In this document: one piece after another, positions 15,001 through 19,263 of the stretch
Layout: every line of letters starts with the position of its first letter
How positions within the stretch are numbered: position 1 is the stretch's first letter
DNA from: an uncultured Candidatus Peribacteria bacterium
GTDB taxonomy: Bacteria > Patescibacteriota > Gracilibacteria > UBA1369 > 2-02-FULL-48-14
Direction of reading: 5' to 3'
Length of the DNA: 36,838 bases
NCBI GenBank assembly: GCA_964533115.1
Contig: CAZHKJ010000001.1
Span: 1-36,838, forward strand
Program-made: the position numbers and the translations under genes
The notes under the pieces: model-generated
The model's input: the letters and a program-made list of their open reading frames with translations, nothing else
What the model was told of the DNA's origin: nothing
The model's database searches: none

Positions 15001-15211
15001 CATTGCAGATGATTTTGAAGATGCGATGAGTGAACTTCTTCCTGGTATTTATGCCGTGAGAGAAACGTGTAGAATCTGCCCCTGCCCTTCACAAGTGGAC
15101 TGGAAAGCGGATCTATTAACGGGAGACTCTATTTTTGCTATCATCCAAGATGAACTCGATCGTATTTTTGAAGTCAGCAACACGGTTCAAATAACTCAAC
15201 CCACGCCATGA
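2..15211 (+). CDS. Giant multidomain cell-surface/adhesin-like protein, 5'-partial (at least 5064 aa)
   Basis: Frame 2 has no stop from nt 2 to the TGA at 15209-15211. The ORF track starts it at TTG 17, but the five codons upstream are also open and the visible N-terminus has no signal peptide, so the true start probably lies outside the window. It contains SLH, TSP3-like, Big/PKD-like and FG-GAP motifs (listed as sub-features below). Confidence 0.9.
   Translation, partial: [5069 protein letters not shown]
134..655 (+). other. Alpha/beta region resembling the gingipain (peptidase C25)-like fold; catalytic residues not identified
   Basis: The pattern [10 protein letters not shown] ... [13 protein letters not shown] ... 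[15 protein letters not shown] ... LLPYTDFED ... DFLPN ... [10 protein letters not shown] resembles the C25 layout (LLvGD..iP, sD..Y, pd..vGR.p). This is similarity by eye only, and no clear His/Cys dyad is visible. Confidence 0.3.
842..1657 (+). repeat. Asp-rich calcium-binding-type repeats (DxDxDG / [12 protein letters not shown] class)
   Basis: Repeated motifs include [104 protein letters not shown] and [12 protein letters not shown]. Confidence 0.6.
4757..5617 (+). other. TSP3-like repeat, three SLH domains, then TSP3-like repeats (wall-anchor module 1)
   Basis: [26 protein letters not shown] is followed by three SLH-like units: [92 protein letters not shown] and [16 protein letters not shown]...[15 protein letters not shown]. 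These are followed by [48 protein letters not shown]. Confidence 0.75.
5768..6960 (+). repeat. About four tandem bacterial Ig-like (Big_1/invasin-type) domains
   Basis: There are roughly 95-100 aa units with a recurring pattern: [20 protein letters not shown]...[51 protein letters not shown]...[38 protein letters not shown]...[25 protein letters not shown]; and [28 protein letters not shown]...[25 protein letters not shown]. A further Big-like unit lies at about 3770-4070. Confidence 0.6.
8021..8425 (+). repeat. FG-GAP/VCBS (integrin-alpha-like) repeats
   Basis: Motifs are [44 protein letters not shown]...[11 protein letters not shown] and [29 protein letters not shown]. An additional unit, [25 protein letters not shown], lies near 12250-12320. 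Confidence 0.65.
9572..11290 (+). other. Unassigned hydrophobic, Cys/Pro/Gly-rich central module with helical and Pro-rich segments
   Basis: The module starts [98 protein letters not shown]. It continues with a helical stretch, a TM-like segment [18 protein letters not shown] (about 10790-10850), the tract [26 protein letters not shown], and then [14 protein letters not shown]. It matches no domain family I can name. Confidence 0.5.
13199..13504 (+). other. PKD-like Ig domain
   Basis: [53 protein letters not shown]...[26 protein letters not shown] follows the PKD pattern (D.DG.I..Y.WD...DG ... V.LTVTD..G...V.V). Confidence 0.45.
14261..15013 (+). other. Three SLH domains followed by TSP3-like repeats (wall-anchor module 2)
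   Basis: The SLH-like units are [105 protein letters not shown] and [14 protein letters not shown]...[16 protein letters not shown]. They are followed by [48 protein letters not shown]. Confidence 0.75.

Positions 15212-19263: not shown

Follow-up and report, generated by a model that had tools for sequence, protein, structure and literature searches.

INTRODUCTION

In fibrinogen, disulfide rings close three-chain coiled coils, and in laminin a C-terminal disulfide joins the beta and gamma chains. Heterotrimers of this disulfide-ring type are, to our knowledge, on record only from animals, in proteins of the extracellular matrix and of clotting. Here we analyse a stretch of 36,838 nucleotides (hereafter the window) from an uncultured Candidatus Peribacteria bacterium (GenBank assembly GCA_964533115.1, contig CAZHKJ010000001.1, positions 1 to 36,838 of the forward strand), in which a gene for a giant surface protein is followed by four genes, termed A to D, whose products each carry a cysteine (Cys) close to the C-terminus. 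Among related loci the gain or loss of a tail Cys in A, C or D is matched by one in another of the three proteins, a pattern that points to a possible heterotrimer closed by disulfides between the tails. Like fibrinogen and laminin, such an assembly would consist of three different chains with helical ends bearing short Cys-x(n)-Cys motifs, joined by a closed set of interchain bonds (A-C, A-D and C-D) at one helix end; as in the laminin beta and gamma chains, Cys would lie at or beside the very C-terminus. Unlike the animal proteins, to which they are related neither in sequence nor in fold, A, C and D are bacterial, putatively Sec-exported and encoded in one operon; their putative bonds are read from covariation, and a three-stranded coiled coil would be hypothetical.

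Large surface proteins encoded beside pilus genes offer a second comparison. PilY1 and its minor pilins (fimU-pilVWXY1) belong to type IVa pili. As in our locus, a pilus cluster there encodes a large protein exported by Sec, which has a beta-propeller and Ca-binding motifs, and some four small accessory proteins. In contrast to the minor pilins, A to D have neither a prepilin leader nor an N_methyl motif and no homology to them was detected, and our giant protein is about five times longer than PilY1 and has SLH wall-anchor domains. The giant genes of Omnitrophota lie downstream of type II secretion/type IV pilus-like loci (bioRxiv 10.1101/2023.11.21.568195); here too a giant exported adhesin-like protein is encoded beside gspE/gspF-type genes and small class III signal-peptide genes, the genes around it are conserved, and contact with other cells has been proposed as its role. 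Omnitrophota are, however, another phylum, their giants have many transmembrane segments and SecA-like domains, and their downstream genes are PilZ and sugar-uptake genes rather than four genes for Cys-tailed helical proteins.

Two reports concern related lineages. The passages of Anantharaman et al. 2016 (PMC4736985) drawn on here attribute to Peribacteria large exported Cys-rich proteins, one disulfide-bond-formation protein and type IV pili, and those of a report on the predatory relative Vampirococcus (PMC8080830) describe giant membrane proteins of up to 4163 amino acids (aa), thought to mediate attachment. These share with our locus a large surface protein and a presumed role in attachment, and the longest Vampirococcus protein (4163 aa) is close in size to the homologs of our giant in relatives that probably use genetic code 25 (4114–4316 aa). 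Unlike the Cys-rich proteins of Peribacteria in those passages, the window giant has 40 Cys in 5064 aa and is not Cys-rich overall. The same passages of the two papers describe no four-gene tail, terminal Cys or pilin linkage, and literature searches returned no description of the four-gene tail.

RESULTS

Four genes behind a giant gene

The giant surface protein gene (1..15211, + strand) has more than 5064 codons in the window and is open at its 5′ end. It is followed on the + strand by gene A (15208..15798; 196 aa, four Cys), gene B (15795..16406; 203 aa, three Cys, comprising a C-x8-C loop and a penultimate Cys), gene C (16403..18184; 593 aa, nine Cys) and gene D (18181..19263; 360 aa, five Cys). 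The start of B is the ATG at 15795, with an alternative start at 15783. A start codon overlaps the preceding stop codon as ATGA at all four junctions: giant gene/A (15208..15211, +), A/B (15795-15798, +), B/C (16403-16406, +) and C/D (18181-18184, +). Such overlap is the classic arrangement for translational coupling, and its presence at each junction suggests that the giant gene and A to D are translationally coupled.

The proteins end ...QCYASQCITQ (A), ...TTAHCK (B), ...KQYCL (C) and ...DRQCR (D), so that a Cys lies within the last 2–9 residues of each and is the penultimate residue of B, C and D. In A, whose tail reads LQCYASQCITQ, two Cys are concerned: A1 (residue 188, codon 15769..15771, +) and A2 (residue 193, codon 15784..15786, +). 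The others are the penultimate Cys of B (codon 16398..16400, +), C2 of C (residue 592, codon 18176..18178, +) and D2 of D (residue 359, codon 19255..19257, +). A preliminary description of this DNA had noted the four genes behind the giant gene and their near-terminal Cys; the open reading frames (ORFs), tails and conservation confirm both, and the translations reproduce the Cys counts and the penultimate positions it gave. None of the 14 other window proteins has a Cys in its last six residues, and from their Cys frequency of 1.1% the chance of four adjacent genes all ending in such a Cys is estimated at ~1e-5. Among homologs the tail Cys is invariant in 33 C proteins and 20 D proteins, and it is present in all four families across 18 Peribacteria-type loci.

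Each protein begins with a basic stretch and then a hydrophobic stretch of 12–20 residues, followed in A, C and D by AxA-like sites, and all four are acidic (isoelectric point 4.07–4.49); the signal-like N-termini and acidity described earlier were thus read again directly from the sequences. AlphaFold2 (AF2) models were available for C and D, made from real alignments, and they agree with the helicity predicted for these two proteins at moderate confidence. The model of D is all-helical (mean predicted local distance difference test score, pLDDT, 68.3), and that of C, likewise made up of helices, has a confident helical N-domain and a poorly modelled Cys-rich middle (mean pLDDT 62.6). In both, long C-terminal helices lead into the tails.

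Covariation of the tail cysteines

In the wider family, A1 and A2 stand for the first and second Cys of the LPC-Y-x3-C motif in A, C2 and D2 for the near-terminal Cys of C and D, and C1 and D1 for the Cys nine residues upstream of these. The covariation set comprised 44 non-redundant complete loci (176 proteins). Tail Cys are not universal across this set; five patterns are seen across lineages. The window has A1 and A2 in A with C2 and D2; the second pattern adds C1 and D1 to these; the third has only A2 and D2, with none in C; the fourth has A2, C1, D1 and D2; and in the fifth A, C and D have none. The preliminary description had named homologs that lack the C-terminal Cys as grounds for refutation. 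In the Peribacteria-type clade the tail Cys are invariant, and B has its Cys in 44/44 loci, but A, C and D lack theirs in some lineages.

The losses follow a strict rule. A1 and C2 are jointly present or absent in 44/44 loci, and the same is true of A2 and D2 (44/44) and of C1 and D1 (44/44); all other tail-Cys pairings are concordant in only 16–34 of the 44. On a neighbor-joining (NJ) tree built from A to D after trimming of their signal peptides and tails, Fitch parsimony gives minima of three changes for A1/C2, one for A2/D2 and two for C1/D1, that is, at least six coordinated double changes in two proteins. Among 181 representatives of the C family, all four tail states occur commonly. Since the losses come in pairs, homologs without the tail Cys strengthen rather than refute a disulfide reading.

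The remaining Cys show the complementary property: with tail Cys excluded, the Cys count is even in 172/176 proteins, and three of the four odd-count exceptions look like N-terminal boundary errors. Of 41 adjacent type IV pilins listed, only one departs from a count of 0, 2 or 4 Cys. The even counts in the pilins and in the cores of A to D fit a proteome in which exported Cys are paired. A disulfide reading is also favoured by the presence in Peribacteria of a disulfide-bond-formation protein and of many Cys-rich proteins that are exported (PMC4736985).

Proposed assembly

Paired gain and loss, taken with even parity, suggests interchain bonds A1-C2, A2-D2 and, where present, C1-D1. We lean, with some reserve, towards a heterotrimer of A, C and D that a disulfide ring at the C-termini would hold together. 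A to D would be four unrelated, lineage-specific acidic helical proteins exported by Sec. Translation coupled at the ATGA overlaps would probably keep their amounts in a fixed ratio to that of the giant SLH-anchored protein. Once beyond the membrane, A, C and D would meet at their C-terminal tails and be locked by interchain disulfides, with A's first tail Cys bonding the penultimate Cys of C and its second that of D, and a third bond between C1 and D1, nine positions upstream, in some lineages. C1 and D1 have the same –9 offset from C2 and D2, as expected if the tails of C and D lay parallel and in register.

B would be a fourth subunit, with an intrachain loop and a conserved unpaired C-terminal thiol. 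Its penultimate Cys, present in 44/44 complete loci, has no covarying partner, and a search through giant parity, upstream pilin Cys counts and giants with or without a B tail Cys gave no candidate. With the giant mostly even in parity and no covariation for B, the B thiol is left as the one odd Cys of the module. Most likely it bridges B to B or bonds a partner encoded outside the operon; a free functional thiol is also possible. Unpaired thiols had earlier been proposed for B, C and D alike. That proposal stands for B, whereas those of C and D would be satisfied by A.

Several other features of B are conserved. In its alignment (A4, 207-aa numbering) C86, C95 and C206 are invariant, and C206 follows a conserved motif, YP-x-K/R-F-x-D/N-A/V-T/S-T-x-x-C. 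Also invariant or nearly so are Y54-H55, N59, N63, an N-V-S-T-Y-C motif, Y157, H167 (in YPLH), R188, P195 and F198; the two conserved His might, together with the lone Cys at the C-terminus, make up a metal or reactive site. In one clade (L004:8997-10001, L059, L060) an insert of ~100 residues brings B to 300–335 aa and adds six Cys (nine in total), with odd parity and tail Cys retained.

Of the earlier proposal of a disulfide-linked extracellular complex, the complex itself is supported by the paired gain and loss of the A, C and D tail Cys, and the giant's Cys-rich core as a partner is not. The assembly would be an obligate accessory of the giant protein, and its position behind type IV pilin genes suggests that it is probably part of a pilus-associated surface structure for cell contact.

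A number of points weigh against this picture. The loci are related, so that the 44/44 agreement reflects about six independent events on a rough NJ tree, and the features of an interchain disulfide ring, namely three distinct chains with terminal Cys paired between them, are seen here as covariation only. The signal-like N-termini were judged by eye from the sequence. The models of C and D are moderately confident and the tails themselves have pLDDT <50. The parity of the giant is not strict (5/22 odd), and comparison of the giant, the pilins and A, C and D gave no partner for the B thiol. For function and for physical association with the giant protein the sole evidence is synteny. Lastly, many such organisms live in anoxic water, which puts in question the oxidant for disulfide formation.

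Linkage to the giant gene and to pilus genes

All standard-code loci with sequence as far as the flank in question have the order giant-A-B-C-D, with one copy of each gene. Starting from C homologs, independently of the giant, a giant gene followed by genes for proteins of ~200, 210, 540–640 and 345–385 aa was found in 8/8 places, and the order holds in all 18 loci analysed, including genome-scan loci with enough sequence. A metagenome scan from the giant core with alignment A3 returned 69 loci; in the standard-code loci among them that reach the 3′ end of the giant gene, the hidden Markov models (HMMs) of A to D match one ORF each, in order, directly behind the giant gene. This order is kept down to 25–30% identity of the giant core. 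The statement that A to D accompany the giant gene therefore extends to every standard-code locus whose sequence reaches far enough.

Among the loci examined, A to D never occur without the giant gene, and the giant gene occurs without A to D in recoded sister lineages. In these relatives the giant ORF contains 15–251 in-frame TGA codons (28–251 in L077, L081, L085, L086, L089, L092, L093, L095 and L096) and its product has ~4100–4300 aa (4114–4316). The TGA codons indicate that their organisms probably use genetic code 25 (the Gracilibacteria/Absconditabacteria type). Broadened HMMs detected no A to D homologs in these UGA-recoded relatives.

One to three type IV pilin genes directly precede the giant gene in 29/35 standard-code loci with upstream sequence (for example L028:1240-3097, L035:691-3108 and L063:439-3959, with 26 further loci), which makes the giant-A-D module the tail end of a pilus gene cluster. 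The pilins have a GFTLIEL leader/N-terminus and match N_methyl/T2SSG in Pfam. In most pilin-bearing loci a PilC/GspF platform gene (T2SSF) lies ahead of the pilins, and a PilB/GspE ATPase gene (T2SSE) was found upstream of pilC in both loci where that ORF was scanned (L049, L063). The most divergent loci do not have this linkage, and A to D are still present. No pilus genes lie upstream of the module in L055, L061, L070, L073 and L078.

The giant protein

The first residues of the window giant, compared with the N-termini of full-length orthologs, show that the window starts inside its signal peptide and lacks ~25 signal-peptide codons at the 5′ end. Full-length orthologs have 5176–5787 aa. 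Pfam domains of the giant are SLH (two copies), bacterial TSP3 repeats, Invasin_D3/Big_1 and FG-GAP. Its core, around residues 2250–3750, is conserved (alignment A3), and against Pfam and Protein Data Bank (PDB) profiles it has no relative except the FG-GAP/integrin-alpha propeller.

The last 2900 aa of the giant have 21 conserved Cys columns. The Cys count of the mature protein is even in 17/22 full-length orthologs, including 7/7 distinct Peribacteria-type proteins, and the window copy is also even. No giant Cys changes were seen that match those of the A, C and D tails, and giants from loci with and without the B tail Cys, when compared, gave no unique Cys column. A link to the giant is therefore not supported, and the suggestion that its Cys-rich core bonds the tails was not borne out.

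Some further segments of the giant were noted at window positions ~9500–11300 (residues ~3190–3730) and 15060–15090. The conserved core has a hydrophobic Gly/Pro-rich stretch with seven conserved Cys, a short sequence motif and a proline-rich run, and the C-terminal end of the protein has a conserved C-x2-C-x-C (CRICPCP).

Family and fold searches

The four families, and the bacterial disulfide-ring heterotrimer inferred from them, have no known counterpart in the libraries searched. In Pfam and NCBIfam A to D gave no match above the curated cut-off, the best being YfbU at 13.8 bits against a cut-off of 25, and none at all for B; PHROGs gave no match. When family profiles of B, C and D were run against every sequence in the PDB, nothing came back at E<0.04. 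With Foldseek, the best hits of the C and D models in the PDB were generic helical proteins (E 0.28 for C and 1.1 for D), as was the best hit of the D model in BFVD (E 0.37). An exact look-up found no identical sequence on record for the window C and D. These results agree with the earlier remark that no known family was recognised for A to D. The C family itself is large: an exhaustive HMMER search gave 418 representative clusters at 50% identity, and among the 150 matches listed the lengths are mostly 430–700 aa, with a few shorter.

No paralogy among A to D was found by BLASTP or hhalign; the signal peptides align. In hhalign the C-terminal stretches of ~80 residues in A, B and C align end to end with probabilities of 33%, 6% and 5%, which are not significant; the alignment hints at a shared C-terminal helical-hairpin module in A, B and C that ends in the Cys tail.

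Several known classes were considered and rejected. Solute-binding proteins are excluded by the lack of such a domain in Pfam and lipoproteins by the lack of Cys in the signal regions of the window proteins, so that the two families against which the preliminary description had set its proposal do not apply; A orthologs have occasional h-region Cys, which are unconserved and do not match a lipobox (L-[ASTVI]-[GAS]-C). Type IV pilins and minor pilins were rejected for want of an N_methyl match in Pfam and of a class III leader motif (Gly and then F/M-T-L-I/L-E) in the N-termini. C-terminal sorting signals (LPXTG/sortase, PEP-CTERM, GlyGly-CTERM, MYXO-CTERM) do not fit chains that stop 1–3 residues past the Cys and have no hydrophobic C-terminal segment. 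Of the tripartite alpha-pore-forming toxins (ClyA/Hbl/Nhe/Mak/Ahl), AhlB and MakA appeared in Foldseek only at E ~5 with a probability of 0.03, and A to D are not paralogous.

Alternative explanations

The strongest of the other readings takes A to D as divergent parts of a type IV pilus, either PilN/PilO-like proteins or a minor-pilin-like tip complex that presents a PilY1-like giant. It concerns function and is compatible with a disulfide ring. The pilin genes before the giant, usually after pilC and in the two loci checked with pilB, speak for it, as do the size of A and B (~200 aa) and their single N-terminal hydrophobic helix, which are compatible with PilN/PilO-type proteins; four accessory genes with a large propeller-containing protein also recall fimU-pilVWX-pilY1. 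We nevertheless think it unlikely. In Pfam A to D have no match to N_methyl, T2SS, PilN, PilO, GspL or GspM at a cut-off of E=1, where the HMMER filters discard most matches above ~0.1; A to D lack the class III leader of the adjacent GFTLIEL pilins; the module persists in the five loci without upstream pilus genes; and the SLH domains argue that the giant is anchored in the wall, not carried on a pilus tip. Covalent bonding of the terminal Cys of B, C and D, each to an unpaired Cys in the Cys-rich core of the giant, has in its favour that the genes always accompany the giant gene and are coupled to it by ATGA overlaps, that the giant has conserved Cys clusters and that B's lone thiol needs a partner. 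It is improbable given the even Cys count of most giants (40 in the window copy), the absence of any single giant column that tracks the B tail Cys, and the pairwise loss of the A, C and D Cys among themselves, for which the giant need not change. A shared interchain metal site (Zn or Fe-S) with the tail Cys as ligands appears slightly more improbable still. The window type does offer four Cys from three chains (A1, A2, C2 and D2) for a Cys4 site, and B carries two conserved His with its tail Cys, but lineages keep 0, 2, 4 or 6 tail Cys and a tetrahedral site could not lose two of its ligands and have the other two stay conserved; gain and loss in strict pairs, with all other Cys even in number, is the signature of disulfides in exported proteins.

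Two readings dispense with bonding between the chains. Lipid or prenyl (CaaX-like) or other covalent modification of the C-terminal Cys, anchoring each protein alone, is very improbable: B, C and D end in C-X, and A orthologs end in CL, CV or CVKG with no conserved CaaX; A to D carry export signals, whereas known prenyltransferases are cytosolic; and independent modification cannot account for paired loss across proteins. In its favour, the window A ends CaaX-like in CITQ, and the passages of PMC4736985 drawn on here give Peribacteria a mevalonate pathway, with genes thought to modify exported proteins. The terminal Cys could lastly be a by-product of the overlapping start and stop signals, or chance, and the ATGA overlap does constrain the last sense codon of A, B and C to NNA. 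The Cys codon, however, lies outside the overlap, D keeps its Cys with no overlapping gene downstream, and orthologs with TAA stops or other junctions keep it as well. The invariance of the Cys in the 33 C and 20 D homologs, with no such ending among the 14 other window proteins, leaves this last reading next to no probability, and conservation refutes an origin by chance or as a by-product.

Flanking genes

Window genes near the module are uvrA, efp, a PrsW-type protease gene, recF and leuS. The block downstream of D (19311-26010 in the window) consists of uvrA, sometimes efp, the gene for the PrsW-type intramembrane protease, and recF; relatives have a small HTH_17 gene between D and uvrA. 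It is syntenic in eight loci (L001-L008), even where the C proteins are only 24% identical, which places the module at a constant site of the core genome rather than on a mobile element. Processing of the tails by the neighbouring PrsW protease was considered and rejected: its gene is on the opposite strand, within the conserved uvrA-prsW-recF housekeeping synteny, and no evidence for a link was found.

Further along the window, 26713-27198 (+) encodes a 161-aa stand-alone papain-like C39/C70-family peptidase domain protein. A PhzF-family gene (27207-28087, –) is split into an N-terminal half (27683-28087) and a C-terminal half (27207-27686) that overlap by 4 nt; the split may stem from a sequencing error or a frameshift, or mark a pseudogene. 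Another, separate type IV pilin-like gene at 35208-35711 (–) has an N_methyl motif (FTLIELMIV), and the product of its divergent neighbour at 35801-36496 (+) has a pilin-like hydrophobic N-terminus (ESMIETLIAITVL) and no Pfam match.

DISCUSSION

The covariation of Cys in neighbouring genes yields a proposed wiring of subunits, A-C, A-D and C-D with B free. Should it be true, this bacterial analogue of a disulfide-ring heterotrimer would be a striking convergence. Cys parity, combined with paired gain and loss in neighbouring genes, is reusable for mapping disulfide-linked complexes in other uncultured organisms, and the four new protein families are usable as lineage markers.

A wider and more speculative picture, which we offer tentatively and consider more doubtful than the heterotrimer itself, is a surface organelle of a kind not known before in Peregrinibacteria/Peribacteria-type bacteria, beside the type IV pilus: a wall-anchored scaffold of some 5000 residues with a covalently closed A-C-D heterotrimer, comparable to the disulfide knot of fibrinogen and laminin and drawn from four orphan protein families, where the reactive thiol of B might cross-link complexes or capture a host-cell partner.

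Peregrinibacteria and their relatives are uncultured bacteria that depend on hosts, and their giant proteins are routinely filed away under ‘attachment, function unknown’. The five-gene module described here, usually found behind pilus ATPase/platform and pilin genes, provides a concrete and testable object for the question of how these bacteria attach to other cells.

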